Part shown: positions 32,635-51,219 of the stretch, in pieces
Numbering within the stretch: the first letter of the stretch is position 1
Layout of the letters: every line of letters begins with the position of its first letter
Origin: an uncultured Gammaproteobacteria bacterium
Lineage (GTDB): Bacteria > Patescibacteriota > Microgenomatia > UBA10105 > UBA927
Assembly (NCBI GenBank): GCA_964596355.1
Contig: CAZQTD010000002.1
Span: forward strand, 24,929 to 88,928
Reading direction: 5' to 3'
Length of the DNA: 64,000 bases
The notes under the pieces: generated by a model
What the model was told of the DNA's origin: nothing
Seen by the model: the letters and a program-made list of their open reading frames with translations, nothing else
The model's database searches: none
Program-made: the position numbers and the translations under genes

Positions 32635-32645
32635 TGCTGCATGCT

Positions 32646-33074
32646 ATGGCAATGAAAGCAGTGGAGTTTTTTCGACTATGGGCTCCGGTAATCGTCTGGA
32701 TGGCGATTATATTTCTTTTATCCAGCCGCCAGCGCATTGAGATTTCCTCTGAACATGTTGTTAACTTCGTATTTTTCAAAGCGCTTCACATGATTGAGTA
32801 CGCTGTTCTTTTTCTCTTGAGCTATCGCGCAGTTAACAATACGTTAAAGAGAAAAAACGCAGTCAACCCATTCATTCTAGCAATAGTCTTGACTATGGCG
32901 TATGCAATTTCCGATGAATTGCACCAGTCATTTGTTCCAACGCGCGAAGGAAAGGCACGCGATGTTATAATTGACGCGCTGGGAGCAATTCTGGCATGGG
33001 TGGCACTCAAACGATTACTACCAAGAGTCCCGAAGAAACTCAACAGGTGGGTCAAAGCCTTGCAACTTTTTTAA
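32646..33074 (+). CDS. VanZ-like family membrane protein
   Basis: Polytopic small protein (WAPVIVWMAIIFLLSS...HMIEYAVLFLL) matching VanZ-like topology. Start set to an internal Met to avoid overlapping the LTD gene. Confidence 0.6.
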   Translation: MAMKAVEFFRLWAPVIVWMAIIFLLSSRQRIEISSEHVVNFVFFKALHMIEYAVLFLLSYRAVNNTLKRKNAVNPFILAIVLTMAYAISDELHQSFVPTREGKARDVIIDALGAILAWVALKRLLPRVPKKLNRWVKALQLF

Positions 33075-35160: not shown

Positions 35161-36147
35161 ATGACAATTATAGGGGTTGTGGTTCACCTCTTTGTTCCGC
35201 ACCACTCAAATAACCATCGGTCAAAAGTTCTTCATGTAGAATCGCTTCTCGTCTACGTGTTAGTATTCGCCATCTTAAATCTTGGGGTTCGGATCCTTCA
35301 TAGGACGATGCCTGACGTATTGGGATATGCTACAGATATCCACGTTGAGCAGCTTTTGAGTGAAACCAATGGACTGCGTCAAGGAGCGGGACTTGCTCCA
35401 TTAGCTCTCAATCAGCAACTATCGGCTGCCGCCGCACAAAAGGCCCAGGACATGTTTGCCAAAGGGTATTGGGCGCACAATAGTCCTAGCGGGGCGACTC
35501 CTTGGGACTTCATTTCCCAAGCGGGATACAAATACACCGTAGCAGGAGAAAACCTCGCCAAGAATTTTTCAACGAGCAAAGGCGTGATTGACGCGTGGAT
35601 GGCATCTCCTACGCACAGAGACAATATTTTGAAGCCTGCTTACAGAGAAGTGGGATTCGCCGTGGTCAACGGGATTCTCAATGGAGAAGAAACAACGCTC
35701 GTGGTTCAGATGTTTGGCGCATCCTCAACACCGCTTGCAATTGCGCCGCCAAAACCGGCCGTGCCTGTTGCGGTAAGCCAAAAAGCAGCGGTGACAGAAA
35801 AACCGTTACAGCCAACGAAGGCGCCTGCCAGAGAAGGGGCAACCCCTCTTGTGACCCCGACGGCAGCACCTCTAGCGCCGCCTGTTCTGGCTTATGGCAA
35901 ATCCATAGAGCCAATTTCGAGCGCATTCCTTGGAGTGACCAAGCAGCCCGCGATTAATATCCCTTCGCTTACGCGGGACATTGTTTTTGTGTTTGCCGGG
36001 GTTATTTTGGGGGTTTTGGCGCTTGACGCGTGGATTGTATCGCGCCGCCGCGTCGTTCGGGTTGCAGGACATAATATCGCGCACTTTTTATTTCTTAGCG
36101 CGATGGTCATTGCGGCAAGCATGGTGGGGAGAGGGAGTTTGATATGA
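35161..36147 (+). CDS. CAP/SCP/PR-1-like domain protein with Pro-rich linker and C-terminal TM segments
   Basis: GYWAHNSPSG...GENLA...WMASPTHRDNIL matches CAP (YkwD-like) motifs. Has an N-terminal TM, a linker PAVPVAVSQKAAVTEKPLQPTKAPAREGATPLVTPTAAPLAPP, and two C-terminal TM helices. Confidence 0.7.
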   Translation: MTIIGVVVHLFVPHHSNNHRSKVLHVESLLVYVLVFAILNLGVRILHRTMPDVLGYATDIHVEQLLSETNGLRQGAGLAPLALNQQLSAAAAQKAQDMFAKGYWAHNSPSGATPWDFISQAGYKYTVAGENLAKNFSTSKGVIDAWMASPTHRDNILKPAYREVGFAVVNGILNGEETTLVVQMFGASSTPLAIAPPKPAVPVAVSQKAAVTEKPLQPTKAPAREGATPLVTPTAAPLAPPVLAYGKSIEPISSAFLGVTKQPAINIPSLTRDIVFVFAGVILGVLALDAWIVSRRRVVRVAGHNIAHFLFLSAMVIAASMVGRGSLI

Positions 36148-36396: not shown

Positions 36397-37134
36397 ATGA
36401 AGGGAGTTATTCTTGCAGGCGGACTTGCGACAAGGCTTCGGCCGCTGACACTTGTTACCAACAAACACCTATTGCCCGTTTACCACAAGCCGATGATTTA
36501 TTACCCGCTTGAGGCGATGCACCGCAGCGGCATCAAAGAGGTGCTTCTTACCACATCGCCTGACCACGCGGGTCATTTTGCCAACTTGCTCAAAGCGGGC
36601 GAGGACTTTGATCTTAAGCTCTATTATGCTGTGCAGCAAAATGCCAAAGGCGGCATCGCCCAAGCAATCGCCCTTGCTCAAGAGTTTGCCAAAAACGAGT
36701 GCGTGGTTGTACTTCTTGGCGACAATATATTTACCGTGAACTTGAAGCAATCAATACAAAAAATCGAATCACAAGGCCGCGGCGCAATGGTTTTTGGCGT
36801 TCGTCGCAGCATGGATTCGAAGCAGTATGGTGTCATCGAGGTTGACGCGAACGGAAAAGTTTTGTCTATAGAAGAAAAGCCTGAACACCCCAAGAGCAAC
36901 ATCGTGCAAACGGGCATTTATGTGTATGACAGCAGGGTATTTGACTTTATCCAAAAACTTACGCCGAGCGCGAGAGGTGAGCTTGAAGTAACGGATTTAA
37001 ATAACCTCTACGTACAAGAGGGGTCATTATACTGTGAAATTATCGATTGGTGGGTTGATGCCGGAACGTCGTACGATGAGCTTCTGCGGGCAAACAACGA
37101 AGTGGCACAGATGGTAAGAGAAGGAAAGTTATGA
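36397..37134 (+). CDS. rmlA: glucose-1-phosphate thymidylyltransferase-like sugar nucleotidyltransferase (short RmlA)
   Basis: MKGVILAGGLATRLRPLT...KHLLPV is the RmlA/G1P nucleotidyltransferase signature. 245 aa, so the C-terminal oligomerisation extension is missing. Confidence 0.75.
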   Translation: MKGVILAGGLATRLRPLTLVTNKHLLPVYHKPMIYYPLEAMHRSGIKEVLLTTSPDHAGHFANLLKAGEDFDLKLYYAVQQNAKGGIAQAIALAQEFAKNECVVVLLGDNIFTVNLKQSIQKIESQGRGAMVFGVRRSMDSKQYGVIEVDANGKVLSIEEKPEHPKSNIVQTGIYVYDSRVFDFIQKLTPSARGELEVTDLNNLYVQEGSLYCEIIDWWVDAGTSYDELLRANNEVAQMVREGKL

Positions 37135-37273
37135 TTAGGAAGTAGTCTTGGAAATGCACGTTTTTTGCCTCGCGTGATGAATGCTACTGGATATCATAAC
37201 GGCAACACAAGTCCGAGGTACCATGAAACGTTAAATGCAATGCAGGGCAAAAAGCAAAACGTCACTATCTCAT

Positions 37274-37750
37274 ATGATTGATGGAGTTGCTATAAAAGAA
37301 TTGATTCGCCATCCGGACGAACGGGGATTTTTTGAAGAAATAATCAGGCGCACTGACCCCTTTTTTGCCGAGGGGTTTGGACAGCTGTCGCGGTCTTCCA
37401 TGCATCAGGGTGTTGTAAAAGCTTGGCACGTTCATAAAACGCAGATTGACTGGTGGTATCTTGTGCGGGGAATTATGAAAGTTGCCCTTTACGATACACG
37501 CAAGGAGTCAAAAACATATAAAGAACTGAATGAATTCGTTTTAGGCGAACAGGGAAAGCCTAACCGTGTATTAAAAATTCCTGCTGGGGTCGCTCACGGA
37601 TTGAAGGTGCTTGTGGGGCCTGCTGACCTTGTGTACGTTACCAGTCGTACGTATGCCAAAGACGAAGAGGGGCGCATCGCGTACGATGATCCCGGTATCG
37701 GCTATGATTGGGTGCAGGGAATACCGATTACTAATATACACGTCACATAG
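37274..37750 (+). CDS. rmlC: dTDP-4-dehydrorhamnose 3,5-epimerase
   Basis: Cupin fold with DERGFFEE...GQLSRSSMHQGVVKAWHVH typical of RmlC. Start set at MIDGV. Confidence 0.8.
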   Translation: MIDGVAIKELIRHPDERGFFEEIIRRTDPFFAEGFGQLSRSSMHQGVVKAWHVHKTQIDWWYLVRGIMKVALYDTRKESKTYKELNEFVLGEQGKPNRVLKIPAGVAHGLKVLVGPADLVYVTSRTYAKDEEGRIAYDDPGIGYDWVQGIPITNIHVT

Positions 37751-37814
37751 ATATGAATCATTTAGAGGTTGGAGGTGTGGGTTGAGAATAGTATAGAAGA
37801 TACATAATTTTTTC

Positions 37815-38804
37815 ATGAAACTTCTGGTAACCGGTGGGGCCGGATTCATCGGCTCGAACTTTATTCTGTATTGGATGGACCGTCATCCCGATGATAGCGT
37901 GGTTAATATAGACGCGTTGACGTATGCTGGCAACCTTGACAATTTGGCACCTGTTAACAATAACCCGCGATATCAATTTATTCACGGAGATATCTGTGAC
38001 GTTAATGTTGTGACCAAGGCGCTTGCGGGCGTTGATACGGTCGTTCATTTTGCGGCAGAGAGCCATGTGGATCGGTCAATTGATAAACCGTTGCCGTTTG
38101 TGATGACGAATATTGTGGGTACACACGTTCTGTTGGAGGCAGCGTTGAAGGCAAAGGTTCAGCGATTTCACCATATTTCTACGGATGAAGTCTATGGATC
38201 TCTTGAATTAGGAACATTGGATAGATTTAGTGAACGAACAAAATATAACCCCAGAAGTCCATATTCGGCGAGCAAAGCTGCTTCAGATCATTTAGTAAAC
38301 GCATACTTTCATACGTACGGTTTACCTATTACAATTACGAATTGTTCCAATAATTATGGTCCATTTCAGTTTCCGGAAAAATTCATTCCCCTTACCATTA
38401 CTAATATTCTGGAAGGCAAAAAAGCGCCTCTTTATGGAGACGGTAAACATGTGCGCGATTGGCTTTATGTATTAGATCATTGTCGCGCAATCGAGCTTGT
38501 GTTGACCAAAGGCAAGGTCGGTGAAACATATTGCGTTGGAGGGCTTACCGAAGACGTTGACAACGAGACGGTGATGAAAAAAATTCTACAGATTATGGGC
38601 AAGGATGAGTCGTTTATCGAGCGGGTGAACGACAGGCCGGGTCATGACCGACGGTACGCGATTGACTGGTCAAAAATTCACCGCGAGTTAGGGTGGCAGC
38701 CAGAGCATGATTTTGACACATGGTTAACCAAAACAGTTAAGTGGTACAAAACGCATGAGTCATGGTGGAAAAAAATCAAATCCCGTGAATATGCAAAGCT
38801 ATGA
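37815..38804 (+). CDS. rmlB: dTDP-glucose 4,6-dehydratase
   Basis: MKLLVTGGAGFIGSNF Rossmann motif and YSASKAASD catalytic YxxxK. Confidence 0.9.
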   Translation: MKLLVTGGAGFIGSNFILYWMDRHPDDSVVNIDALTYAGNLDNLAPVNNNPRYQFIHGDICDVNVVTKALAGVDTVVHFAAESHVDRSIDKPLPFVMTNIVGTHVLLEAALKAKVQRFHHISTDEVYGSLELGTLDRFSERTKYNPRSPYSASKAASDHLVNAYFHTYGLPITITNCSNNYGPFQFPEKFIPLTITNILEGKKAPLYGDGKHVRDWLYVLDHCRAIELVLTKGKVGETYCVGGLTEDVDNETVMKKILQIMGKDESFIERVNDRPGHDRRYAIDWSKIHRELGWQPEHDFDTWLTKTVKWYKTHESWWKKIKSREYAKL

Positions 38805-39685
38805 AGATATTAGGAACAGGATTATCAGGGCTTGTCGGTTCGCGCGTTGTTGAACTTCTTTCACCCCCTTGGAGTTTTGAAAACTTGAGTCTTGAAACTG
38901 GTATTGATATTACTGACAAAACGCTCGTGACGCGCTACATTGAGCAATCAGAAAGCCAGTGGGTTTTCCATTTTGCGGCAATTACTGATGTTGACGGATG
39001 TGAACAAGAAAAAGATAGAGGCCAGCAGAGCAGATCGTGGCAGGTCAACGTTGCAGCCACAGAACACATCGTTCAAGCGTGCAAGGAGACCGGAAAGCGC
39101 ATGGTGTATATTTCCACAGATTTTGTTTTTGACGGCACGAAACCGTCATATACCGAAGAAGATATTCCTAATCCTCTGAGCTGGTACGCGCTGACAAAAT
39201 ATGAAGGCGAGAAACGGGTCACTGCCTTGGGCGATCGCGGGCTTATTGTGCGCATCGCCTACCCCTATCGCGCAACAGCTGCCGGCAAGCCTGATTTTGT
39301 CCATAGAATACTTGAAAGATTACAACAGGGCAGTCCGGTGACTGCTCCAAGCGATTCGTTTATTACGCCGACGTTTATCGATGATATTGCCTATGCCTTG
39401 AAAAAACTTATATCGGCACGTTCAAGCGGCATCTATCATGTGGTTGGAGGCGCCGCGACGACTCCTTTTGAGGCGGCGCAAACGATCGCTCGCGTGTTTG
39501 AACTAGACAGTTCGCACATTACATCGATTATGCATGAAGACTATTACAAGAATCGAGCGAGGCGTCCCTTTTACGGCATACTCAAACATGATAAAATAGC
39601 GAAATTCGGTGTCGCTATGTCTACTTTGGAAGACGGGTTGCGAGCGGTACGTGAACAGGTAGGTAAGGCGCGTAAAGACGTATGA
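38801..39685 (+). CDS. rmlD: dTDP-4-dehydrorhamnose reductase
   Basis: MKILGTGLSGLVGSRV start, RmlD-like SDR with YALTKYEGE (YxxxK). 4-nt overlap with rmlB. Confidence 0.85.
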   Translation: MKILGTGLSGLVGSRVVELLSPPWSFENLSLETGIDITDKTLVTRYIEQSESQWVFHFAAITDVDGCEQEKDRGQQSRSWQVNVAATEHIVQACKETGKRMVYISTDFVFDGTKPSYTEEDIPNPLSWYALTKYEGEKRVTALGDRGLIVRIAYPYRATAAGKPDFVHRILERLQQGSPVTAPSDSFITPTFIDDIAYALKKLISARSSGIYHVVGGAATTPFEAAQTIARVFELDSSHITSIMHEDYYKNRARRPFYGILKHDKIAKFGVAMSTLEDGLRAVREQVGKARKDV

Positions 39686-40980
39686 CGATAGCATTTATCG
39701 GCCATGGGTACGTTGGACTTGTTTCTGCCGCTGTATTTGCGGATTTAGGTAATACCGTGTGGGTGGTCGGACGAACGAAGGAGAAAATAGATAAGCTTAA
39801 ACGCGGCATAGCGACGTTTTATGAGCCGGGTCTTTCGGAGTTGGTCAAACGCAACGTTGACGCAGGCAGATTGCTTTTTACGCTGGACTATAAAGACGCG
39901 GTCGTTCCATCCACAATCATTTTTATTTGTGTGGGCACGCCTGCCAGGCGCAATGGCGAGGCAGACCTAACGAGTGTTTTTTCAGCGGCTGAACACATAG
40001 GAAAAAATCTCACGGGTTATAAAGTAGTGGCAACAAAAAGTACCGTGCCGCCGGGAACAAATCGCAAGGTAGCTGCAATTCTTGCAAAACACGCTTCGCG
40101 GGATGCGTTGTTTGACGTTGCATCGGTGCCGGAATTCTTGCGTGAAGGAAGCGCCATAGACGATACGCTTCATCCGGATCGTGTCGTTATTGGCTGTGAT
40201 GCGAAGCGAGCCTGCAAACTGCTTCTTGAACTCCACAAGCCTATTGACGGCAAGACGGTGCTTTGTGCTATAGAGACTGCGGAACTTATCAAATACGCAT
40301 CCAATTCGCTTTTGTCTACAAAAATATCGTTTGCCAACGCCATATCATTTCTTGCGGAAAGGGTTGGAGCAGATGCAGAGCAGGTTTTGGAAGGTGTTGG
40401 ACTGGACAAAAGGCTGGGCAGAAGTTTTCTCTATCCCGGGGTTGGATATGGCGGCAGTTGCTTCCCCAAAGACGTGAAAGCGCTTATCGCTATCGCCAAG
40501 GAGCACGGGTATGATTTTAGCCTTCTTAAGGCGGTTGACGCTATAAACAAGGAGGCTGCCGAACATTTTATAGAGAAAATCTTGAACCACTTTGACGGTA
40601 AACTCGCAGGAAAAACCATCGCGATATGGGGACTATCATTTAAGCCAAATACCGATGACATGCGAGAAGCGCCGTCAATATCAATAATTTCACGTCTTGT
40701 TCGCGAGGGGGCAACTGTTCGCGCCTACGATCCCGCGGCTGTGGAAAACGCGAAGCTCGTGTTGCCCAAAAGCGTCGAATTTACCAGAAGCGCGCAAGAG
40801 GCAGCAACCGGAGCAGACGCGGTTGCTGTCATCACAGAATGGAATGAATTTCGCCAGATTGATCTGGAGAAGCTAGCTAAAAATCTTAAAAGCAGAGTTC
40901 TTTTTGATGGAAGGAACATTTACGATCCCGAGCGTGTAAAAGAGGCGGGTTTTCTGTATTATAGTGTTGGGAGGGGATAA
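39682..40980 (+). CDS. ugd: UDP-glucose 6-dehydrogenase / nucleotide-sugar dehydrogenase
   Basis: IAFIGHGYVGLVSA Rossmann motif and catalytic Cys region GGSCFPKDV. Confidence 0.85.
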   Translation: MTIAFIGHGYVGLVSAAVFADLGNTVWVVGRTKEKIDKLKRGIATFYEPGLSELVKRNVDAGRLLFTLDYKDAVVPSTIIFICVGTPARRNGEADLTSVFSAAEHIGKNLTGYKVVATKSTVPPGTNRKVAAILAKHASRDALFDVASVPEFLREGSAIDDTLHPDRVVIGCDAKRACKLLLELHKPIDGKTVLCAIETAELIKYASNSLLSTKISFANAISFLAERVGADAEQVLEGVGLDKRLGRSFLYPGVGYGGSCFPKDVKALIAIAKEHGYDFSLLKAVDAINKEAAEHFIEKILNHFDGKLAGKTIAIWGLSFKPNTDDMREAPSISIISRLVREGATVRAYDPAAVENAKLVLPKSVEFTRSAQEAATGADAVAVITEWNEFRQIDLEKLAKNLKSRVLFDGRNIYDPERVKEAGFLYYSVGRG

Positions 40981-40983
40981 ATT

Positions 40984-41943
40984 ATGGTTAAGAAAAAAGT
41001 ATTCATTACCGGTATTGCCGGGTTTGTGGGGAGCCATTTGGCGGAATTGCTTCTGCATAAGGGGTTTGAAGTGTATGGACTTGTACGGCCGCGCAGCAAC
41101 ACCGATCACATTGAATCCATCATGAGCAGACTGCGGCTGGTGGACGCCGATCTAATGGACACCCACAGTCTCTATACAACCATCAATAGGATTAAGCCTG
41201 ATTTTATTTTCCATCTGGCTGCACAATCGTTCGTTCCAACATCATGGGTTTCTCCGTCGGTGACGCTGGAGGTCAATGTTGTGGGATCCGCAAACCTCTT
41301 CGAAGCGGTTAAGATGGCAAAAATAGATCCCGTCATCCAGATTGCGTGTTCTTCAGAAGAATACGGTTTGGTTATGCCCGAAGAACTGCCAATAGTGGAA
41401 ACGAACCCCCTGCGGCCGCTTTCTCCGTATGCGGTATCAAAAGTCGCAATGGATTATTTGGGATACCAGTATTACCAATCGTACAAGGTGCGAATTGTGC
41501 GGACTCGCGGGTTTAACCATACCGGTCCAAGGCGTGGAGAAACGTTTGCCGAGTCGAATTTTGCCAAGCAAATTGCGATGATTGAAAAGGGCAAACAAGA
41601 ACCGGTCGTCAGCGTCGGAAATTTGGATGCAAGCCGTGACTATACCGATGTGCGGGATATGGTGCGCGCGTACCTTTTGGCTGTTGAGAAGTGCGACCCG
41701 GGCGACGTTTACAATATCTGTTCAAATAAAACGGTCAAAATTGGCGATATGCTTAACCTTCTTGTATCATATGCAAAGGTGAAGGTGACGGTAAAGACGG
41801 ACCCCGCACGGATGCGTCCCAGCGACGTGCCGATACTTTTGGGAAGCAGCAAGAAATTTTTTGATAAAACCGGTTGGAAGCCAGAGATCCCGTTTGAAAA
41901 AACCATGGAAGATCTTCTTAATTACTGGCGGGCGAGAGTGTGA
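40984..41943 (+). CDS. NAD-dependent nucleotide-sugar epimerase/dehydratase (Gmd/UXS/ArnA-C-terminal-like extended SDR)
   Basis: VFITGIAGFVGSHLAELLL and YAVSKVAMD (YxxxK). Its position directly after ugd suggests it acts on UDP-glucuronate or a related sugar. Confidence 0.7.
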   Translation: MVKKKVFITGIAGFVGSHLAELLLHKGFEVYGLVRPRSNTDHIESIMSRLRLVDADLMDTHSLYTTINRIKPDFIFHLAAQSFVPTSWVSPSVTLEVNVVGSANLFEAVKMAKIDPVIQIACSSEEYGLVMPEELPIVETNPLRPLSPYAVSKVAMDYLGYQYYQSYKVRIVRTRGFNHTGPRRGETFAESNFAKQIAMIEKGKQEPVVSVGNLDASRDYTDVRDMVRAYLLAVEKCDPGDVYNICSNKTVKIGDMLNLLVSYAKVKVTVKTDPARMRPSDVPILLGSSKKFFDKTGWKPEIPFEKTMEDLLNYWRARV

Positions 41944-41950
41944 CGCTGCT

Positions 41951-43063
41951 ATGAATCTGGTCTTCATTCTTCCCACGTATAACGAACGGGAGAATATTGT
42001 TACGCTGCTTGAAGCGCTTAGAAAAGCGACGTCAAAAGTTAAAGGCTATACGATTACGTATCTTATCGTTGATGATAATTCTCCGGATGGCACAAAAGAT
42101 GAAGTGTTGCGGTACAAAAAAACTCACCCTACCGTTCAGGTGGTATCCGGCAAGAAAGAAGGTTTGGGCAAAGCGCTATTGCGGGGAATGAAGTATGCGG
42201 TTCATACGCTTCGTACCGACATTTTGTTTCAAATGGATGCGGACTTATCGCATGATCCCTCTAAAGTGCCGGAATTTTTAGAGCATCTGGCAAAGGGCGC
42301 GGATTTTGTCATCGGAAGCAGATACATTCCGGGAGGGTCTATACCGGACAACTGGGGAGCGCACCGAAAGCTTTTTAGCAGGGCTGGTAATGCGATCGTG
42401 CGGTTTGGGCTCGGATATCCGCATGTGCATGACTGGACAGGAGGATTTAGAGCGTTTCCCAAAAAGTATTATGAATTATTGCATGAAGAAGTTTCTCCGT
42501 ACAGCGGATACGTATTTCAAATAGCATTTTTGCACCGCGCGATTATGAAAGGCGCGCGTGTTGCCGAAGTGCCGTTTAGATTTACGGATAGACGGTTTGG
42601 CAGGTCAAAAATAGCGCCCGCCGAATATATCCGCAATGTGTTGGTATATGTGGCAAATGCCAGAATGATGCAATGCATACATGGCCCCATCGGCAAGATG
42701 CTTGTTGTGGGCGCCATAGGGTTTGTCATCAATACGATTATTCTTGAGGCCGGCGTTGCGCTGGGTTTGGATCCGACGGTTGGAAGCGCGGCAGGAGCAG
42801 AAACAGCGATTATATCGAATTTTATCCTCAACAACACGTGGACGTTTCGGGAGAGAAAAATTATCGGCATAAGATTAATCAGTAAATTCCTGCAATTTAA
42901 CGCGACGTCGTTTGGCGCGATACTCATTCAGACGGCAACAGTGTTTGCGGGCACGCGATTGTTTGGTCACGGCGTGTATCGGTTGTTTTACATGATGGGC
43001 GTGGGAATCGGTTTGGTATGGAATTTTACAATGTACGCAAAGGTCATCTGGAGAAAAAAATGA
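41951..43063 (+). CDS. GT2 polyprenol-phosphate glycosyltransferase fused to C-terminal GtrA-like domain
   Basis: Start refined to MNLVFILPTYNERENI. GT2 core with DDNSPDGT and DADLSHDP, then four C-terminal TM helices resembling the GtrA family (residues 250-370). Confidence 0.75.
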   Translation: MNLVFILPTYNERENIVTLLEALRKATSKVKGYTITYLIVDDNSPDGTKDEVLRYKKTHPTVQVVSGKKEGLGKALLRGMKYAVHTLRTDILFQMDADLSHDPSKVPEFLEHLAKGADFVIGSRYIPGGSIPDNWGAHRKLFSRAGNAIVRFGLGYPHVHDWTGGFRAFPKKYYELLHEEVSPYSGYVFQIAFLHRAIMKGARVAEVPFRFTDRRFGRSKIAPAEYIRNVLVYVANARMMQCIHGPIGKMLVVGAIGFVINTIILEAGVALGLDPTVGSAAGAETAIISNFILNNTWTFRERKIIGIRLISKFLQFNATSFGAILIQTATVFAGTRLFGHGVYRLFYMMGVGIGLVWNFTMYAKVIWRKK

Positions 43064-43067
43064 ACAT

Positions 43068-44609
43068 ATGATAGTAATATGCGGTGAGCAGAAGAAACCA
43101 TGGATGGTTCCCCTTGTGGTGGGGGTTATTCTCGCGCTTGGAGCGTATCTTCGGCTCCACAATATTGCTGGCTACATGACGTTTTTGGGTGATGAAGGAC
43201 GAGACGTCCTTGTCGTCAAACGCATGATAGTGGACCATAAATTTACGCTTCTTGGCCCCACTGCGTCAGTGGGCGGATTTTTCCTTGGACCGCTCTACTA
43301 CTACCTTATGCTTCCTTTTTTGTGGGCATGGGGGCTTAATCCTGTGGGTCCCGCCGTTATGGTTGCGCTTTTTGGTGTTGCGACGATTTACCTTGTGTAC
43401 CTGACCGGACGCGTACTGTTTGACCGGTGGGTCGGTATAATCGCTGCAAGTCTCTATGCGGTGTCTCCTTTAGTTATCGCGTACTCCCGATCATCATGGA
43501 ATCCAAACGTGGTGCCGTTTTTTGCGACGCTTCTTGTATTGTTATTGTGGAAGCTTAAACAACGCGAAACAGGACGTGTTGCCCTTGGAATCGGCGTTGT
43601 TCTCGGCATGGGACTGCAGCTCCATTATCTCTTCCTCTTTTTATTTGTACTGGTGGGTTTGTGGTATGCGGTGAGCGTTCGGCGTGCCACGCTGTTACGA
43701 CTCGTCGCTCTGACGACAGCGGGGTTCGTCATTGGGTACGCGCCGTTTCTAGCGTTTGAGGTGCGCCACGGTTTTCCTAACACGCAATCCGTGATACGTT
43801 TTGTGTTTGCGGGTAAAGAAACCGGGTATCAGGGGACAGCGTTTTTTACGACGATTTACGACATCGTGTTTAGGCTTTTTGGAAGACTTCTTTTCAGACT
43901 TCCAGATACGACCGTATGGGACAATTTCCCGCGATGGCAAATAGCCGTTTGGATCATGATCACGCGGACGACTGCTATAATAAGCAGCATTGCTTTATTC
44001 TTGCCTGTCTTTAGAAGACGCAAACAATCACAAAACTATCTCCTCCTCCTTCTGTGGTTTACTGTTCCGGTGTTTCTTTTTGGGTTTTACAAAAAGGGTA
44101 TCTATGATTATTATTTTGGCATTTTTTTTGCATTGCCGTTTCTTGCCGTTGGAATCATCGTGTCGCTCCTTATGAAAGGAAAACTTTCCCGGTGGATGGC
44201 ATTGGGACTTTGGCTGGGACTGGTATATTTTAATTGGCAGGGAAGGCCGTTTGTTCATCCTCCGAATAATCAGCTGGCGCAGGCGAGAGAAATCGCTCGT
44301 GTTGCGTATGAAAAGGCAGAGGGGCGGCCGTACAACTTTGCCTTGGTAACCAGCGGGAATTCTGATCACGCGTACCGATACTTTTTTGAACTATGGGGCA
44401 ATAAGCCAGTTACAATTGAGAATGAAAGCATTGACCCGGAAAGGAAAACCGTGACAGATCAACTCATCGTTATATGTGAAGGCGCGTGCGAGCCGCTGGG
44501 ACATCCCTTGTGGGAGATTGCTGGTTTCGGCAGAGCAGAAATCGCAGGAAGCTGGGACGTACCATTTGTCAAAATTTATAAACTCGTCCACTATAAAGGA
44601 GAATCGTGA
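43068..44609 (+). CDS. polytopic GT-C-type glycosyltransferase (ArnT/PMT superfamily-like, DEGRD motif in first loop)
   Basis: 513 aa with more than 10 TM helices and an acidic motif FLGDEGRD after TM1. Paralogous to the minus-strand gene at 62574-63842 (shared GP.YYYL block). Confidence 0.55.
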   Translation: MIVICGEQKKPWMVPLVVGVILALGAYLRLHNIAGYMTFLGDEGRDVLVVKRMIVDHKFTLLGPTASVGGFFLGPLYYYLMLPFLWAWGLNPVGPAVMVALFGVATIYLVYLTGRVLFDRWVGIIAASLYAVSPLVIAYSRSSWNPNVVPFFATLLVLLLWKLKQRETGRVALGIGVVLGMGLQLHYLFLFLFVLVGLWYAVSVRRATLLRLVALTTAGFVIGYAPFLAFEVRHGFPNTQSVIRFVFAGKETGYQGTAFFTTIYDIVFRLFGRLLFRLPDTTVWDNFPRWQIAVWIMITRTTAIISSIALFLPVFRRRKQSQNYLLLLLWFTVPVFLFGFYKKGIYDYYFGIFFALPFLAVGIIVSLLMKGKLSRWMALGLWLGLVYFNWQGRPFVHPPNNQLAQAREIARVAYEKAEGRPYNFALVTSGNSDHAYRYFFELWGNKPVTIENESIDPERKTVTDQLIVICEGACEPLGHPLWEIAGFGRAEIAGSWDVPFVKIYKLVHYKGES

Positions 44610-45358
44610 AACAACCGTTTTTGTCCATCGTCATCCCTGCATACAATGAAGAAACGAATATTCGCTTAGGCGCGCTTGATAAGGTGTCCAGGTATCTGGA
44701 GCACCAAACATACAGAAAGGAAGTTATTGTGGTTGATGACGGCTCGACCGATGCGACAGGGGATCTCCTTGACGATTTTGTCCAAACGAATAAAGACTTT
44801 CGCGTTATCCACAAGGCTCACAGTGGAAAAGCCGGCACGGTGATAGAGGGTGTGTTGGCGGCAAAAGGAGAACTGGTGCTGTTTACCGATCTAGATCAGG
44901 CAACGCCGCTTCATGAACTAGAACGTTTGCTGCCGTATTTTGCCAGCGGATATGACATTGTTATCGGTTCAAGGAATGCAAGGCGTGAAGGAGCGCCCGT
45001 TACACGCGTCATAATGGCGAAAGGATTTATGATGCTTCGCGCGCTCTTTCTGGGACTTCGAGGAATTACTGACACGCAGTGCGGATTTAAAGCGTTCCGG
45101 CGGGAAGTAGCAGTGTCAATTGTTCGAAACCTCAAGCTCTACGGACATGGCGGCCAAGCGACCGGTTCGATGGTAACCGCAGGATTTGATATAGAGGTGC
45201 TTTTTGTTGCGAAAAAAAAGAAATACAAAATTAAAGAAGTTCCTGTCGAGTGGCACTATGTGGAAACGAGGAGAGTTAGCCCGCTAAAAGATTCTTTATT
45301 CGGACTTGTGGATATGATAAAAATCCGCGTGAATGCGTGGCGGGGGCTCTATCGGTAG
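44606..45358 (+). CDS. GT2 polyprenol-phosphate glycosyltransferase (Dpm1-like)
   Basis: SIVIPAYNEE, VVDDGSTD and DLDQATP (DxD). 4-nt overlap with the preceding GT-C gene. Confidence 0.8.
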   Translation: MKQPFLSIVIPAYNEETNIRLGALDKVSRYLEHQTYRKEVIVVDDGSTDATGDLLDDFVQTNKDFRVIHKAHSGKAGTVIEGVLAAKGELVLFTDLDQATPLHELERLLPYFASGYDIVIGSRNARREGAPVTRVIMAKGFMMLRALFLGLRGITDTQCGFKAFRREVAVSIVRNLKLYGHGGQATGSMVTAGFDIEVLFVAKKKKYKIKEVPVEWHYVETRRVSPLKDSLFGLVDMIKIRVNAWRGLYR

Positions 45359-45366
45359 ATTAGCGT

Positions 45367-46506
45367 ATGGTATTGCTTGTATCCTATGTATTTGCGGCGT
45401 TGAGCTTGCTGGTATATTCGTACACTCAAGTTGACTTAAGCCTTACGCTAACCGAAGCGGGCATTTTTCAATCTATACAAAAGGCGTTTCAGCACATTGG
45501 TTATTATCAGCGACCAATGTCTACTGCTTTATTTATCGTGATCGTTCTGATGTTTTCCGGACTTTACCTTGCATCCATTCGCGCGTTTCGGAAGAACGCA
45601 CTGACGAACCGCCAGCTTTGGCATATTATCGGTGCGGTTGCAGCAATTCTTGTATTGTCATACCCGGCTTTTTCTTATGACCTATTTAACTACATGTTTA
45701 CCGCAAAAACCGTACTGGTATATCACAAAAACCCGTACACGGTGACTCCGCTTCAGTTTTCTGGTGTTGAACCATGGCTTTCCTTCATGCATTGGACGCA
45801 TCTACCCAGTGCCTATACCCCATTGTGGATACTCATAACTATCCCCGCGTACCTTTTAGGGTTTGGGTATTTCTTGGGGATCATGTGGAACATGAAACTC
45901 ATTGCTGCGGCATTTTATCTGTTGACTGCATGGTGTATTGGTCAAATTCTGTCGCGCGTCGATGAAAAACGGCGGCAAGTGGGTATGGCGATATTTGCGC
46001 TCAATCCTCTTATCATCATAGAGACGCTTGTCAGCGGCCACAACGATATCGTCATGATGGCGTTCGCAATGTTGGCGCTCTGCTTATGGCTGGCAAGAAA
46101 GCACCGTTTGTCATACGTGTTTTTGGCTCTGTCTGTTGCAAGCAAGCTCATAACGCTTGTTTTGTATCCCGTCGCAGTATCAGGGTGGAATAGACGATGG
46201 GCGCTTGCCGCCATGCTTGGTGGATTTGCCGCTGTTTTAACCCAGCGCGAGGTGCTTGCGTGGTATTGGGTATGGATCGTGCCGTTTGTCGCGCTTCTGC
46301 CGTCCTATGGCGAATTAACGATCGTATCACTGGGCGTATCCATTGGTTTGCTTCTTCGCTACGCGCCGTTTCTCTATTTCGGTCACTGGAACGACCCGGT
46401 TCCGCTTATTAAGGAGTGGGCGACATGGGTGCCTGTTGGCGCTTCAATTGTTTTAGTATGTTCTATACGTCTTTTGCGTAGAAAAAATCGCGCATCTTCG
46501 GTATAA
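45367..46506 (+). CDS. polytopic membrane protein, putative GT-C-like glycosyltransferase or polymerase
   Basis: 379 aa with about 10 TM helices and a conserved-looking SGHNDIVMMAF segment. Family not recognised with confidence; the call rests on context within the glycosylation locus. Confidence 0.4.
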   Translation: MVLLVSYVFAALSLLVYSYTQVDLSLTLTEAGIFQSIQKAFQHIGYYQRPMSTALFIVIVLMFSGLYLASIRAFRKNALTNRQLWHIIGAVAAILVLSYPAFSYDLFNYMFTAKTVLVYHKNPYTVTPLQFSGVEPWLSFMHWTHLPSAYTPLWILITIPAYLLGFGYFLGIMWNMKLIAAAFYLLTAWCIGQILSRVDEKRRQVGMAIFALNPLIIIETLVSGHNDIVMMAFAMLALCLWLARKHRLSYVFLALSVASKLITLVLYPVAVSGWNRRWALAAMLGGFAAVLTQREVLAWYWVWIVPFVALLPSYGELTIVSLGVSIGLLLRYAPFLYFGHWNDPVPLIKEWATWVPVGASIVLVCSIRLLRRKNRASSV

Positions 46507-46525: not shown

Positions 46526-48028
46526 ATGGCACAACGCACGAAGATTTGGAGTTTAAGGCTGTTGTTCATAGGTGTTTTATTGCTTCTTTTTTACTTAGTC
46601 ACGAGGCTGACCAACCTTACCCAATTGCCGATATTTACCGATGAAGCAATCTATATCCGCTGGAGTCAGATAGGTTCACGCGATGCCAACTGGAGATTTA
46701 TTTCGCTTGTTGACGGCAAGCAGCCGATGTTTACGTGGATTATGATGGTTTTTTTGAAAGTTATCCGCGATCCGCTGCTGGCGGGTCGGCTGGTATCTGT
46801 TGTGAGCGGATTTGTGACGATGGCAGGGTTGGGGCTTTTGACGTTTGCGTTATTTCGAAGTGCGAAGCTGGGGTTTGTCGTCTGTACGCTGTATATACTT
46901 TCTCCGTTTGCCCTTATGTATGACCGCCTCGCACTGTACGATTCTCTGGTAGCCGCGTTTTCTGTGTGGAGTCTTTACGGCGGCGTCCTATTGGTTCGGT
47001 TATTGCGTTTGGACATCGCGCTTCTTCTGGGGATGGTATTGGGCGCGGGAATGCTCAACAAATCCTCGGGATTTATGAGCCTCTACTTTTTGCCTGTTAC
47101 GCTGGTGCTGTTTGACTGGCGTAAAAAGGAGAGAATAATGAGGTTTCTGCGATGGCTGGGTCTTGTGCTGGTTGCCGCAATCATTTCCCAGCTTCTTTAC
47201 AGCGTACTTAGACTTTCGCCGCTTCTTCATATGGTGAAACAAAAAGACGCGGTATTTGTCTATCCGTTTCACGAGTGGCTCAAACACCCTTTCAATTATT
47301 TCGTCGGCAATATACAAGGACAATTTGATTGGCTCATCCGATACATGACCATTCCGATAGCACTGCTTTCATTTATTCCAGCTGTTACTTTCTGGAAGCA
47401 CACACGCGAGAAACTCCTTCTCTACGCGTGGTGGGCAGCGCCGTTTCTTGTGCTTGCGCTGTTTGCCAGAGTCTTGTACCCCCGGTTCATTTTATTTATG
47501 GTAATGCCGCTTTACGTTTTAGCATCGATTCCTTATCTATGGATTATGGAGCGGCTTGGACATCGTCTTTGGAAAGCGGTTCTGCTGTTTCTTATCATAT
47601 TTCCGAGCGTGTTTGCCGACTTTTACATCATCGCGGATCCCAGATATGCGCCGCTCCCATTTTCCGACAAAGTTCAACTTGTAGACGACTGGCCGTCGGG
47701 ATGGGGCATTCGTGAGGTCAACGCATATCTTATAGAAGAAGCGAAAAAGGGAGAGATCGCCGTTTATACAGACGGGACGTTTGGCCTCCTTCCGTATGCA
47801 ATAGAGATGTATCTTGTTGATAACCCGCACGTAACGATAAAAGGAATCTGGCCGCTTCCCAAAGATCCGCCGGAAGAGATGATTGCGGATGCGGCCCGTA
47901 AACCGACATACATGGTATTTAATCAAACGCAGAATGTGCCGTTGTGGCCCATGGAGAAAATCAGTGAATATGCAAAAGGCAACAGCAAGGATCAAAAACT
48001 TCGCTTATATCGAATCATTGAAAAATAA
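46526..48028 (+). CDS. GT39/GT83-like (ArnT/PMT family) GT-C glycosyltransferase
   Basis: First-loop motif PIFTDEAIYIRW (the DE motif of ArnT/PMT enzymes), more than 10 TM helices, and a C-terminal soluble domain. Confidence 0.65.
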   Translation: MAQRTKIWSLRLLFIGVLLLLFYLVTRLTNLTQLPIFTDEAIYIRWSQIGSRDANWRFISLVDGKQPMFTWIMMVFLKVIRDPLLAGRLVSVVSGFVTMAGLGLLTFALFRSAKLGFVVCTLYILSPFALMYDRLALYDSLVAAFSVWSLYGGVLLVRLLRLDIALLLGMVLGAGMLNKSSGFMSLYFLPVTLVLFDWRKKERIMRFLRWLGLVLVAAIISQLLYSVLRLSPLLHMVKQKDAVFVYPFHEWLKHPFNYFVGNIQGQFDWLIRYMTIPIALLSFIPAVTFWKHTREKLLLYAWWAAPFLVLALFARVLYPRFILFMVMPLYVLASIPYLWIMERLGHRLWKAVLLFLIIFPSVFADFYIIADPRYAPLPFSDKVQLVDDWPSGWGIREVNAYLIEEAKKGEIAVYTDGTFGLLPYAIEMYLVDNPHVTIKGIWPLPKDPPEEMIADAARKPTYMVFNQTQNVPLWPMEKISEYAKGNSKDQKLRLYRIIEK

Positions 48029-48034
48029 CCCGTT

Positions 48035-49570
48035 ATGGCAAAAAAGACCGCGCATGTTCCCCTTTTTTCAATTGCCATCATTATTTTTGCCGTCTTCATT
48101 GTGCTCATTCCCCTCATCCGACGCGGTTTTTTCGTTTCCGATGACGGCGAATGGATGATTATCAGGTTATCCGCCTTCTATCAGGCGTTTCGGGAGGGGC
48201 AGTTTCCGGTCCGATTTCTCGGCAGGCTAAACAACAGTTATGGCTATCCGGTCGCAAATTTTTTGTATCCCGGGTTTTTGTATATTGGTTCCGTTTTGCA
48301 TGCGATAGGCTTCTCGTTTGTCGACAGCGTCAAACTCATTCTCGCGGGTTCGGTCATCGGCGCTACAATATTTTTGTACTTATGGCTTCGGACATTTTTT
48401 ACTCCACGCATAAGTGCCGCAGGCGTTTTAAGTTTTGTGTTTGCCCCGTACCTTCTCCATGATATGTACAAGCGGGGCTCCGTAGGTGAGGTGTTGGCGA
48501 TATGTTGGGCGGCAATGGGTTTATACGCTATCGACTCGAAAAAGTCATGGTTGTTTTCACTCGCTCTGGCACTTCTTATCGTCAGTCATAACTCATTGGC
48601 ACTTCTTTTCAGCGGGTTTTTCCTGTTGTATCTCATGTGGCTGCGGCGGATAAACGATTTTCTCTATCCATATTTGTTAGGAGTTGGGATGACAACCTTT
48701 TTCTGGTTGCCAGCGATTATTGAGCAAACCTATGTGGTTTTCCGATCTGCTACCGTAGCAAATCCATCTGAATATTTACTCAAGGGGCTCGAGATTTCGC
48801 GTGTCGGTTTGGCGTTTGTTGTCTTCGCACTCATCCTCATGATAAAACATGAGGTAAAACAACGGGTGCCTTTTTTTATTTGCGTGCTTTGTGGCATCGT
48901 TATCCTTACCCTCCCTATAAGCGCTCCGGTTTGGAAGCTTACAATTTTAAAGACATATGTGCAGTTTCCTTTTCGATTTCTTTCTCTTGGACTTTTTGTT
49001 GGGCCGTGGATCGTTGCTTTTGCCTTGCAGAGACTACGCGGGGGTTGGCGCGTGGCCGCAACAGTTCTCATCGCGATCCTGTGGCTGCATAGCGTCGGCG
49101 ATGCGTTCCGGTCAATCCGTTTTACGCAGGAGGTCGAAGGGTACTACACAACCAATGAGTCAACAACGACGGTACATGATGAATACATGCCTCGGTGGGT
49201 TGTTATGAAGCCAAAGACACGTCCGCGCGAGCGAATGGAGTTTATTAACGGAAGCGGACGGTTCGATTATAGAACAGTGAGCACTCAACTTATTGATGCG
49301 ACTGTTGACGCTCATACAGATAGTATCATTCAAATTAATACAATCTATTATCCTGGTTGGGGAGCAAGCCTTAATGACAGAAAAGTTGTTATAGATTATA
49401 ACAATGATGCGGGAGTGATGCGCATCGCTGTGCCCAAGGGAACATATCGTCTGATTGTGGCATTTCGCGAAACCGTATCGCGGTTTGCCGCAGACGTCGT
49501 TTCAATTATTGCATTCATCCTGTTTCTTGTGTACGCGAGATCTTCGCAAGTGAGGAAGTATCCGGTATGA
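48035..49570 (+). CDS. PTPS-related/YfhO-like polytopic membrane glycosyltransferase (paralog 1)
   Basis: SDDGEWMIIRLSAFYQAFREGQFPVRF...YGYPVANFLYPGF N-terminal block is paralogous to the next gene. Multi-TM with a C-terminal extracytoplasmic domain. Confidence 0.55.
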   Translation: MAKKTAHVPLFSIAIIIFAVFIVLIPLIRRGFFVSDDGEWMIIRLSAFYQAFREGQFPVRFLGRLNNSYGYPVANFLYPGFLYIGSVLHAIGFSFVDSVKLILAGSVIGATIFLYLWLRTFFTPRISAAGVLSFVFAPYLLHDMYKRGSVGEVLAICWAAMGLYAIDSKKSWLFSLALALLIVSHNSLALLFSGFFLLYLMWLRRINDFLYPYLLGVGMTTFFWLPAIIEQTYVVFRSATVANPSEYLLKGLEISRVGLAFVVFALILMIKHEVKQRVPFFICVLCGIVILTLPISAPVWKLTILKTYVQFPFRFLSLGLFVGPWIVAFALQRLRGGWRVAATVLIAILWLHSVGDAFRSIRFTQEVEGYYTTNESTTTVHDEYMPRWVVMKPKTRPRERMEFINGSGRFDYRTVSTQLIDATVDAHTDSIIQINTIYYPGWGASLNDRKVVIDYNNDAGVMRIAVPKGTYRLIVAFRETVSRFAADVVSIIAFILFLVYARSSQVRKYPV

Positions 49571-51219
49571 AAAAGATCGCAGCGGGAAGCATTCTAGTCA
49601 TTATTCTTTCGGTATGGGCAATCCGTCCAATTGCGATGCCGGGTTTTTTCCCGATGCATGACGACACCCAAGTCGGGCGCGTCATTGCCATGGGCAGAGC
49701 GCTTCGTCTGGGGCAATTCCCGGTTCGCTGGGTGCTGGATTTGGGATATGGGTACGGATATCCTATTTTTAATTTTTACGGTCCGCTCCCATACTATTTT
49801 GGAGGCGCGCTTTATGCGTTGGGTGTTCCGGGGCTTATTGCAACCAAGGCCATGTTTATCGCAGGAGTCGTTGGCGCGGGGATTGCTATGTTTGGCGCGT
49901 CTTCGGCGTTTTTGGGAGTAACCGGCGCTCTTGTTGCTGCTATTTTTTATGTGTATGCACCTTATCACGCGGTTCAAGTTTACGTGCGAGGAGCTGTCGG
50001 AGAATTTTGGTTCCTTATATTTCTACCGATCATTCTATCGGGCATAGCGAAACGCCGCGTTCTGGTTACCGGTTTGGGGCTTGCCGGAGCAATACTTTCC
50101 CATACGGTGTTAGGATATGCGACAACGCTTATGTATGTTCTCGGTGTGATGTTCGCTGCCATTGTCGCGCGCAGGGGGAGCACCGTTGACGCCGGCAGCG
50201 TGTGGCGTCTGTTGACTGCGCTTGCCCTTGCGCTGGGCGGTACTGCGTTCTTTTGGCTTCCTGCGGCAGCCGAGATGCGCTTCACAAGTGTCGTGGGCCA
50301 GGTGGGGAAGACCGCAAACTTTTCTGATCATTTTGTCTGCTTGCCGCAGTTGTGGGATTCTTTGTGGGGGTACGGCGGGTCGGCAATCGGGTGCGTTGAC
50401 GGGCTTTCGTTTAAACTTGGCAAGCTCCACAGTGTGCTGTCGCTGATAGCGGTAGCGTTGTGGTTTATTTTTGGGAGAATGCGGCATACAACGAGTTCGC
50501 GCCTCGTTTATGTATCAATGGTTGTTGCCATGATTGGTATGTTTTTTGTGCTTTCTGTAAGCGAGCCGGTATGGATGCTTATGCCTGGCTTTGCCTACAT
50601 TCAATACCCGTGGAGATTTCTAACCTACGCCATTGCTGCCGCGTCGCTTCTCGTTGGCAGCCTTTGCATCTATATAAAGCACCGCTTGATCAAGTGGGCT
50701 ACGGCAACAGTACTTTGTATATCGGTCATAGCGCTGCAGCAAAAAGTTTTCGTGCCCCAATATATCTACAGCAGAAATTTGAACGCGTTTGAATCCGATA
50801 CGTATCTTCGGTATGAGGTGTCAAAAATATCCGACGAATATTTGCCACGTGACATTATTCGGCCGAAAAGCGAGAAGCAGGTTATCCGTGATACAATACG
50901 CGGACCGGATACATCGCGGGTTAAAATTGAGAGGGATACGGATACATCGCTTCGATTTTCGATAATAACCGACAACCCGCAGGTCGTTGAGGTCATGCGG
51001 ACATATTTTCCCGGGTGGCGATATAGGGTGAATGGCAAATACGTGGAACCTATGCTGTCACACGGATTGCCGCGTCTTGCGGTCCCTGCTGGATATAGCG
51101 TGATTGAAATAGACTTTGTCGATACACCGGTTAGAACAATTGGGAACGCCGTGTCTGTCCTGACAGCGGCAGTTCTTATTACCATTTATGGGAAAAAAGC
51201 AAAAAAACCCATCACTTAA
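49567..51219 (+). CDS. PTPS-related/YfhO-like polytopic membrane glycosyltransferase (paralog 2)
   Basis: HDDTQVGRVIAMGRALRLGQFPVRW...YGYGYPIFNFYGPLPYY aligns residue-for-residue with the N-terminal block of the preceding gene. 4-nt overlap. Confidence 0.55.
   Translation: MKKIAAGSILVIILSVWAIRPIAMPGFFPMHDDTQVGRVIAMGRALRLGQFPVRWVLDLGYGYGYPIFNFYGPLPYYFGGALYALGVPGLIATKAMFIAGVVGAGIAMFGASSAFLGVTGALVAAIFYVYAPYHAVQVYVRGAVGEFWFLIFLPIILSGIAKRRVLVTGLGLAGAILSHTVLGYATTLMYVLGVMFAAIVARRGSTVDAGSVWRLLTALALALGGTAFFWLPAAAEMRFTSVVGQVGKTANFSDHFVCLPQLWDSLWGYGGSAIGCVDGLSFKLGKLHSVLSLIAVALWFIFGRMRHTTSSRLVYVSMVVAMIGMFFVLSVSEPVWMLMPGFAYIQYPWRFLTYAIAAASLLVGSLCIYIKHRLIKWATATVLCISVIALQQKVFVPQYIYSRNLNAFESDTYLRYEVSKISDEYLPRDIIRPKSEKQVIRDTIRGPDTSRVKIERDTDTSLRFSIITDNPQVVEVMRTYFPGWRYRVNGKYVEPMLSHGLPRLAVPAGYSVIEIDFVDTPVRTIGNAVSVLTAAVLITIYGKKAKKPIT

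Follow-up and report, generated by a model that had tools for sequence, protein, structure and literature searches.

Here we describe a gene, at positions 41951..43063 of the + strand, in a 64,000-nucleotide stretch of contig CAZQTD010000002.1 (hereafter, the window, by which we mean the whole stretch). Its product is a single polypeptide that combines the catalytic domain of a family 2 glycosyltransferase (GT2) with a four-helix GtrA-like transmembrane (TM) domain, which is the architecture of the dolichyl-phosphate mannose synthase of Pyrococcus furiosus (PfDPMS). We consider it reasonably probable that the protein is a bacterial, probably patescibacterial, polyprenyl-phosphate glycosyltransferase built like PfDPMS; this degree of confidence applies to the explanation as a whole, that is, to a synthase that would flip its own product, which would then be used by C-type glycosyltransferases (GT-C) on the outside.

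For the question of how polyprenyl-phosphate sugars cross membranes, a synthase with a built-in GtrA domain lends itself well as a test, and this argument was put forward earlier for the archaeal enzyme that was crystallised; the idea that synthesis and translocation are coupled was published in 2026 (PMC12992685). What we add is modest. The architecture and its polar pocket occur widely among bacteria, Patescibacteria above all, and so extend beyond the hyperthermophilic archaea; the residues of the pocket appear to be common to stand-alone GtrA relatives; and GT-C genes often directly follow the fused gene in Patescibacteria. These additions are of use in annotation and in the choice of proteins for transport assays, and they leave the current picture unchanged.

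The open reading frame (ORF) encodes 370 amino acids between the ATG at 41951 and the stop codon at 43061-43063. This ATG, which lies 7 nt past the stop codon of the upstream gene (41943), is the likely start, because homologues of 368-375 amino acids begin at the equivalent methionine and because the upstream alternative, a TTG at 41861 that would give a protein of 400 residues, overlaps the preceding gene. We therefore rejected the longer form.

Domain architecture and structural relatives

Several lines of evidence establish the architecture, and the agreement lies well outside what chance would produce. Firstly, both halves of the protein match Pfam families above their gathering cut-offs. 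PF00535 (Glycos_transf_2) matches residues 5-174 (41963..42472; E 1.5e-26, 93.7 bits, the cut-off being 23.3), and the catalytic region, of the GT-A fold, reaches to about residue 222. PF04138 (GtrA_DPMS_TM), which Pfam now names 'GtrA/DPMS, transmembrane domain', matches residues 251-367 over positions 3-117 of its 117-position model (E 1.6e-15, 57.8 bits against a gathering cut-off of 26.1). Secondly, the AlphaFold2 model, calculated with 74 homologues as input (predicted local distance difference test, pLDDT, 89.2; predicted TM-score, pTM, 0.73), has a catalytic half in which strands alternate with helices, as is typical of the GT-A type. Two interface helices follow from the same model: the first (residues 137-153; 42359..42409) aligns with interface helix 1 (IFH1) of PfDPMS, and the second (residues 223-244; 42617..42682) bridges the catalytic and TM domains. 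The GtrA-like TM domain itself (42686..43048), as delimited by PF04138, the AlphaFold2 helices and hydropathy, consists of TM1 (residues 246-270), TM2 (275-298), TM3 (307-338) and TM4 (340-366). The loop at 299-306 and the C-terminal WRKK each contain three lysines or arginines, and the loops at 271-274 and 338-341 contain none. Since these charges follow the positive-inside pattern, the TM domain is predicted to be N-in/C-in, which would place the catalytic domain on the cytoplasmic side.

Thirdly, the closest protein of known structure is, by a wide margin, PfDPMS. In a phmmer search of the PDB, the best match was PfDPMS (5MLZ; E 4.4e-40, residues 3-338, about 30% identity), far ahead of ArnC (E 4e-9) and GtrB (5EKP; E 4e-5, residues 3-127 only), and when the TM region was searched alone PfDPMS was the sole chain matched (E 7e-4). 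With Foldseek, the top three PDB entries were all PfDPMS (9EP0, 5MLZ and 5MM1; E about 5e-23 over about 375 columns), with ArnC and GtrB next in the ranking (E 1e-14 to 1e-9). A point that weighs on the other side is that the global superposition on PfDPMS has a root-mean-square deviation of 8.3 A and a TM-score of about 0.6; because of these values, the domains, or the TM pairs, may be positioned relative to one another in another way than in PfDPMS.

An earlier, sequence-only reading had described the protein as a GtrB-GtrA fusion, citing the GT2 motifs TYNERENI, DDNSPDGT and DADLSHDP and four C-terminal helices of GtrA character. The motifs are present (as PTYNERENI at residues 8-16, 41972-41998; at residues 41-48, 42071-42094; and at residues 96-103, 42236-42259, respectively), and the four helices, their GtrA-like nature and the fusion itself are borne out by the results above. 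The alternative that the C-terminus is a generic GT2 membrane anchor is ruled out by the match to PF04138 and by the fact that stand-alone proteins of GtrA size were retrieved alongside the fusions when the TM domain was queried alone. The assignment to GtrB, on the other hand, has to be revised, since by its catalytic half the protein belongs with DPMS, Dpm1 and Ppm1. GtrB has a C-terminal hairpin of two helices and forms tetramers. Membership of the window protein in that group was rejected on the basis of the weak and partial match to 5EKP and of a C-terminus that consists of four GtrA-type helices instead of such a hairpin.

PfDPMS, the structure of which was solved in 2017, comprises a GT2 domain, a pair of interface helices and a set of four TM helices (PMC5526996). 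The resemblance to the structures available for this enzyme (5MLZ, 5MM0, 5MM1 and 9EP0) extends over the whole polypeptide, GtrA-like domain included, and the two proteins have in common the residues for GDP, for O2 and O3 of mannose, for the A-loop and for the lipid phosphate, the pocket asparagines N248 and N277, and the aromatic residues at the TM interface (F291 and W367). There are differences as well. The window protein is bacterial and presumably mesophilic, whereas PfDPMS is archaeal and hyperthermophilic; the acceptor of PfDPMS is dolichyl phosphate, whereas for the window protein a bacterial polyprenyl phosphate would be expected; DADLSHDP, GYVFQ and L355 stand in place of DADLQHPP, GFKIL and the gate residue F338; and the window gene stands in an operon with GT-C genes.

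Catalytic residues and the donor sugar

For the catalytic half, the roles of residues were taken from PfDPMS (PMC5526996), and their conservation was read from two alignments, with sets of 48 sequences of the Candidate Phyla Radiation (CPR) type and 26 archaeal sequences. The guanine-contacting residues D39, G68 and L69 of PfDPMS correspond to D42, G71 and L72 here; the aspartate contacts N1 and N2 of the base, and the equivalents of G71-L72 provide the contact to O6 and the stacking (PMC5526996). Likewise, Y10, which contacts the ribose, is Y10 here; D89 and H94, which contact O2 and O3 of mannose, are D96 and H101; the metal residue D91 is D98; and the A-loop residues E12, R202 and K208 are E12, R214 and K220 (R214 to K220 at 42590..42610). 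All of these are invariant or nearly so, D96 and D98 without exception. The acceptor-phosphate residues S123-R124-Y125 (SRY), R139 and S143 (42317..42379), which include the equivalents of R117, R131 and S135 of PfDPMS, are also invariant. Because the residues that bind GDP-mannose and those that bind the lipid phosphate are conserved, the most likely reaction is mannose transfer, with GDP-mannose as the donor, to give polyprenyl-phosphate mannose. Relatives of the protein are annotated by JGI as 'dolichol-phosphate mannosyltransferase'.

Two motifs set the CPR-type sequences apart from the archaeal ones. In the metal- and diphosphate-binding DXD motif (DADLSHDP), S100 is present in all 48 CPR-type sequences versus glutamine in all 26 archaeal ones, and position 102 is aspartate or asparagine in the former versus proline in the latter. 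In the GYVFQ motif (residues 186-190; 42506..42520), V188 takes the place of K178 of PfDPMS; this position is valine or leucine in 48/48 CPR-type sequences versus lysine in 26/26 archaeal ones. Both motifs recur in GT2 relatives without TM helices, from loci of Actinomycetota and Myxococcota, which are 40-45% identical over the GT2 domain (DADGSHQP and GYCFQ in Streptosporangium; DADFSHDP and GYAFQ in Corallococcus). The pair DADxSH and GYxFQ occurs in mannose synthases of the Dpm1/Ppm1 type, eukaryotic Dpm1 included. The window protein resembles the Ppm1/Pmt systems of Actinobacteria and the Dpm1/PMT systems of eukaryotes in these motifs, and in having GT-C partners of the PMT_2 type. Synthases of the Ppm1/Dpm1 type lack a GtrA domain: they are free of TM helices, have just one, or rely on separate partners (DPM2/3 or Ppm2), and we know of no flippase for their product.

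Some observations weigh against mannose as the donor sugar, and they could be taken to indicate that the architecture is as described but that the enzyme uses another sugar, such as glucose, glucuronate, a 6-deoxyhexose or an amino sugar. Firstly, two PfDPMS residues of direct relevance, the metal ligand Q93 and K178, which contacts O4 and O6 of mannose, are replaced by S100 and V188. Secondly, the genes directly upstream serve the synthesis of dTDP-rhamnose and UDP-glucuronate, and the sole pointer to GDP-mannose among them is a gmd-like dehydratase that scores below its cut-off. Thirdly, none of the NCBIfam equivalogs matched (AglJ, dolichyl-P-hexose transferase, PgfS, ArnC and PpgS) comes close to its cut-off, and a specific NCBIfam name can therefore not be given to the protein. 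In addition, PfDPMS itself is somewhat active with GDP-Glc (PMC5526996). We nevertheless regard a donor other than mannose as rather improbable, since D42, G71-L72 and the mannose-contacting D96 and H101 are invariant, since the DADxSH and GYxFQ pair is common to the TM-less GT2 relatives, and since the protein matches DPMS better than ArnC or GtrB by at least 30 orders of magnitude. Furthermore, the enzymes encoded downstream belong to PMT_2 and GT87, families centred on users of polyprenyl-P-mannose.

The transmembrane pocket and the proposed mechanism

[quoted passage not shown] The authors, from the laboratory that published the 2017 structure (PMC5526996), call the TM domain GtrA-like and proposed in 2026 that PfDPMS acts as the flippase for what it makes; catalytic activity is retained upon TM deletion and in mutants of the pocket (PMC12992685). 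The window protein has the residues for an equivalent pocket. N261 in TM1 (42731..42733) corresponds to N248, is invariant in both alignments and is asparagine or glutamine in most relatives; N290 in TM2 (42818..42820) corresponds to N277, is likewise invariant in both alignments and is present in 50/51 sequences from the loci that we analysed. In TM4, the alignment of the LVWN motif (43013..43024) places L355 at the gate F338 and N358 at R341. Position 355 is leucine or methionine in all 48 CPR-type sequences versus phenylalanine in 24/26 archaeal ones, and N358 is found in 48/51 locus sequences; the residue at position 341 of PfDPMS is asparagine in archaea other than Thermococcales (PMC12992685). 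Across the 48 CPR-type sequences, N261, N290 and N358 are all invariant. E284, N294 and the motif W297-T298-F299 are almost invariant as well.

These features bear on classification. A strict type-III DPMS has been defined by DADxQHPP at positions 89-96 (x being L, F or Y), by SRY, R131, S135 and K178, and by N248, N277 and F338 (tyrosine being tolerated at the last position), and is, according to the authors, confined to hyperthermophilic archaea (PMC12992685). The window protein has SRY, R131 and S135, the two asparagines N248 and N277, and, in one polypeptide, the GT2 domain, both interface helices and the four-helix TM domain. It has DADLSHDP in place of DADxQHPP, V188 in place of K178 and L355 in place of F338, and we therefore do not assign it to the strict type III.

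The pocket residues also appear outside fusions. When the TM domain alone was searched against 1.84 billion representative sequences and the 150 best matches (P0246-P0395) were classed, 37 were full-length fusions and 74 were stand-alone-like, that is, of at most 200 amino acids, starting with methionine and without a GT2 domain, some of these short candidates possibly being fragments or parts of split genes. Among the 67 stand-alone-like candidates that were aligned, N/Q261, E284, N290, N294 and N358 are conserved to the same extent as in the fusions. This is suggestive of a pocket common to fusions and stand-alone GtrA relatives, and would conflict with the statement, based on two comparators only, that GtrA proteins lack the pocket motifs (PMC12992685). 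For the stand-alone protein GtcA, an asparagine in TM4 (N132) and an arginine in TM3 (R95) are essential for glycosylation in vivo (PMC7389260). Judged by spacing, N132 might tentatively be equated with N358 of the window protein.

Based on these data, the following mechanism can be proposed. In a first step, at the cytoplasmic face, the enzyme would transfer mannose from GDP-mannose onto polyprenyl phosphate to form polyprenyl-P-beta-mannose. In a second step, the product would be taken over by the GtrA-like domain of the same polypeptide, where the polar pocket of N261, N290 and N358, together with E284 and N294, would shield the sugar-phosphate head group while the lipid crosses the membrane down its concentration gradient. 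In a third step, on the outside, the GT-C enzyme encoded at 43068, and probably those at 45367 and 46526 too, would use the lipid-linked sugar as the mannose donor for a wall glycopolymer or a protein.

The second step is the weakest, resting as it does on a proposal derived from the crystal structure of an archaeal homologue, and several points count against it. The flipped lipid in PfDPMS is, according to the authors, possibly an effect of the detergent, and flipping by that enzyme is a proposal (PMC12992685). Moreover, lipid flipping has never been directly shown for any GtrA protein, and for two of them, Rv3789 and P. aeruginosa 6247, a role as a scaffold or hub has been argued instead. 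It should also be noted that catalysis and flipping by the window protein are predictions from its sequence and model, and those by its fused homologues in bacteria predictions from sequence.

It is therefore conceivable that the enzyme makes the same product but that its GtrA-like domain translocates nothing and instead anchors the enzyme in the membrane, offers the polyprenyl chain a place to dock or, as a scaffold, recruits the partner GT-C enzyme, with flipping being carried out by another protein or not being protein-specific at all. Besides the hub or anchor role proposed for Rv3789 and P. aeruginosa 6247, the tight and conserved adjacency of the GT-C gene is as compatible with a physical complex as with flipping, and the cluster contains a MOP/Wzx flippase gene (51927). 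In addition, two GT2s of the cluster that resemble lipid-sugar synthases have neither TM helices nor a GtrA partner, and another route across the membrane would be needed if they make lipid-linked sugars. On the other hand, a plain anchor has no need of the buried, invariant polar residues N261, E284, N290, N294 and N358, which are seen in fused and stand-alone relatives alike; the essential TM4 asparagine and TM3 arginine of GtcA (PMC7389260) and the head group held inside the equivalent pocket in 9EP0 (PMC12992685) also argue against such a role. Taken together, we regard an anchor or scaffold as a distinct possibility, though not as the preferred explanation, which remains that of a synthase that flips its own product.

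A more far-reaching version of the preferred explanation would be that the fused GtrA-like domain is a self-contained translocase for its own product, that the fused gene and its GT-C neighbour constitute a minimal two-gene machine for extracytoplasmic mannosylation, and that the asparagine-lined pocket is a general translocation site of this GtrA subfamily. We put this forward tentatively and consider it, as a whole, somewhat doubtful. If true, it would extend the archaeal proposal (PMC12992685) to a large bacterial family and would offer mesophilic bacterial proteins for assays of lipid-sugar flipping.

Distribution of the fusion and the surrounding glycosylation cluster

The fused layout is neither rare nor new: it is represented in Pfam, it has been crystallised, it is annotated in public records and it is found in thousands of sequence clusters. 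The sequence-only reading had raised the question of how common the fusion is in related lineages, and the answer is that it is common. A word-indexed search, in which 8,000 candidates were scored, gave 7,890 matches with E <=1e-5. Among the matches listed, all 120 homologues (59-100% identity, 368-419 amino acids) have both Pfam domains, and those that are named come from Patescibacteria or Gottesmanbacteria. When seeded with PfDPMS, the search led to an archaeal family in which one NCBI record (P0190) is annotated as 'dolichol-phosphate mannosyltransferase, fused to membrane-bound GtrA-like domain'. A scan of genomes, one per species, gave at least 570 relatives; in the best 80 loci, which are those that we analysed, the fused ORF is present in 47. 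According to the titles of the records, the fused loci are spread over many lineages of Patescibacteria (Gottesman-, Beckwith-, Levy-, Ames-, Collier- and Daviesbacteria, Paceibacterota and Peribacteria) and are also seen in Nitrosospira sp. Nsp11, SAR86, Methylococcaceae, Spirochaetota, Chloroflexota and several archaea. The Pfam architecture was confirmed in the examples from Nitrosospira, SAR86, Spirochaetales and Chloroflexota. Several of the closest loci (L002, L006, L007, L012, L017 and others), from third-party assembled records, are titled 'uncultured Gammaproteobacteria' and carry the operon as it is found in metagenome-assembled genomes (MAGs) of Patescibacteria, and these labels look unreliable. 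Our own assignment of the window to Patescibacteria is based on its nearest homologues and on the gene order that it has in common with them.

The two halves are encoded separately in two of the loci. In Lucifera butyrica (L071, 3604-4753), a GtrA of 141 amino acids (PF04138, 78 bits) precedes a GT2 of 251 amino acids and overlaps its start, so that the order is GtrA to GT2. In a Chloroflexia MAG (L052, 3983-5290), a GT2 of 273 amino acids is followed by an in-frame stop, a 9-nt spacer and a GtrA of 158 amino acids (PF04138, 101 bits); this split could be real, or it could reflect a pseudogene or a sequencing error. The existence of both split and fused forms supports a functional link between synthase and GtrA, and makes the fusion an ordinary evolutionary variant.

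Split versions such as these, the second of which is separated merely by one stop and a short spacer, also raise the question of whether the fusion in the window could be an artefact, in which an error of sequencing or assembly, or the loss of a stop codon, turned adjacent GT2 and gtrA genes into one ORF in this one genome. This is so improbable as to be negligible. An identical 370-aa protein is recorded from two independent sources (NCBI and Logan), and the fusion recurs in every one of the 120 listed homologues, in more than half of the analysed loci and in the archaeal protein that was crystallised; on these grounds we excluded an artefactual fusion.

The fused gene lies within a cluster of at least 26 kb for glycosylation of the cell envelope. 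The next gene, 43068..44609 (+), starts 4 nt after the stop codon of the fused gene and encodes a GT-C glycosyltransferase of 513 amino acids with many hydrophobic segments (PMT_2, PF13231, 35.9 bits against a cut-off of 26.1), presumed to be the consumer of the lipid-linked sugar. Its DE motif (FLGDEGRD) comes soon after the first hydrophobic segment, as does that of the 46526 protein (IFTDEAIY); a DE motif at this place is typical of GT-C enzymes. It is followed on the same strand by a GT2 of 250 amino acids without TM helices (44606..45358), a GT87-like glycosyltransferase with multiple TM segments (45367..46506; PF09594, 30.8 bits against a cut-off of 25) and a second PMT_2 GT-C of 500 amino acids (46526..48028; PF13231, 35.9 bits). 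Searches of the PDB with the sequences of the 43068 GT-C and the 45367 GT87-like proteins gave no meaningful match.

The order fused gene, GT-C, GT2, GT87-like, GT-C recurs in loci of Patescibacteria down to about 40% identity, and the TM-less GT2, the GT87-like gene and the second GT-C keep their positions in it. A homologue of the 43068 gene is immediately downstream in 17 of the 47 fused loci, mostly those of Patescibacteria, and a GT-C homologue is present within 4 kb in 29 of them. At most of the fused loci of proteobacteria, spirochaetes and archaea a neighbouring GT-C is not present. The adjacency of a GT-C gene, as claimed in the sequence-only reading, is therefore confirmed, and the claim that three components are combined in two genes holds for Patescibacteria, where the unit is conserved, but the unit is not kept outside that lineage. 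We found no literature specifically on this operon in Patescibacteria. Within the 64-kb window, a search with a hidden Markov model (HMM) built for the TM domain detected the fused copy as the only gtrA, the model being narrow enough that a very divergent GtrA could be missed; two small ORFs of the window with multiple TM segments are TspO and VanZ.

This arrangement can be compared with the three-component systems GtrA/GtrB/GtrC (the Gtr system of Shigella phage SfX), CsbB-GtcA-YfhO (Bacillus and Listeria) and ArnC-ArnE/F-ArnT (E. coli). These share a common logic, in which a GT2 makes a polyprenyl-P-monosaccharide in the cytoplasm, a small four-helix module of the GtrA family is implicated in its crossing, and the sugar is passed on by a GT-C enzyme at the outer side. 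The window encodes all three functions side by side, with YfhO-type genes further along the cluster. It differs from these systems in that the first two components are one protein, in that the GT2 half is far closer to DPMS than to GtrB, and in that the likely donor is GDP-mannose, not UDP-glucose, UDP-GlcNAc or UDP-Ara4FN.

The remainder of the cluster is rich in genes of similar type. Directly upstream of the fused gene, a block on the + strand (36397-41943) contains a complete dTDP-rhamnose set, consisting of rmlA (36397; 245 amino acids and thus short, covering model positions 1-238 of 286), rmlC (37235), rmlB (37815) and rmlD (38801), followed by a UDP-glucose 6-dehydrogenase gene (39682) and by the gmd-like gene of a short-chain dehydrogenase/reductase (SDR) (40984; 187 bits, below the 415-bit cut-off). 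Downstream of the second PMT_2 gene, two large ORFs on the + strand encode multi-TM proteins of 511 and 550 amino acids (48035-49570 and 49567-51219) that have no match in Pfam or NCBIfam; they may be unclassified GT-C-like enzymes. Homologues of these two ORFs are found in other loci of Patescibacteria (L027, 6253-7365; L030, 6533-8275). They are followed by a second TM-less GT2 of about 250 amino acids (51188-51925, +). For this GT2, and for the one at 44606, the best NCBIfam matches are polyprenyl-P-hexose synthases (PgfS, dolichyl-P-hexose transferase and PpgS), and neither has a GtrA partner.

The MOP/Wzx flippase gene (51927) comes next, and beyond it are, in this order, three GT2 genes, a YfhO-type gene (56015; 775 amino acids), a GT4 gene, a second YfhO-type gene (59342; 763 amino acids) and another GT2 gene. 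A third PMT_2 gene (62574-63842) lies on the opposite (-) strand. Including the distal genes of the cluster, at least six genes of the GT-C or YfhO type are thus present within about 21 kb.

Some other features of the window are unrelated to the fused gene. These are the genes for the TspO/MBR family protein (13186-13668, +; 159 bits), the VanZ-like protein (32592-33074, +) and a protein with a CAP/SCP domain (35161-36147, +), and a tRNA gene (13792-13865, -), which is the sole Rfam match in the window.

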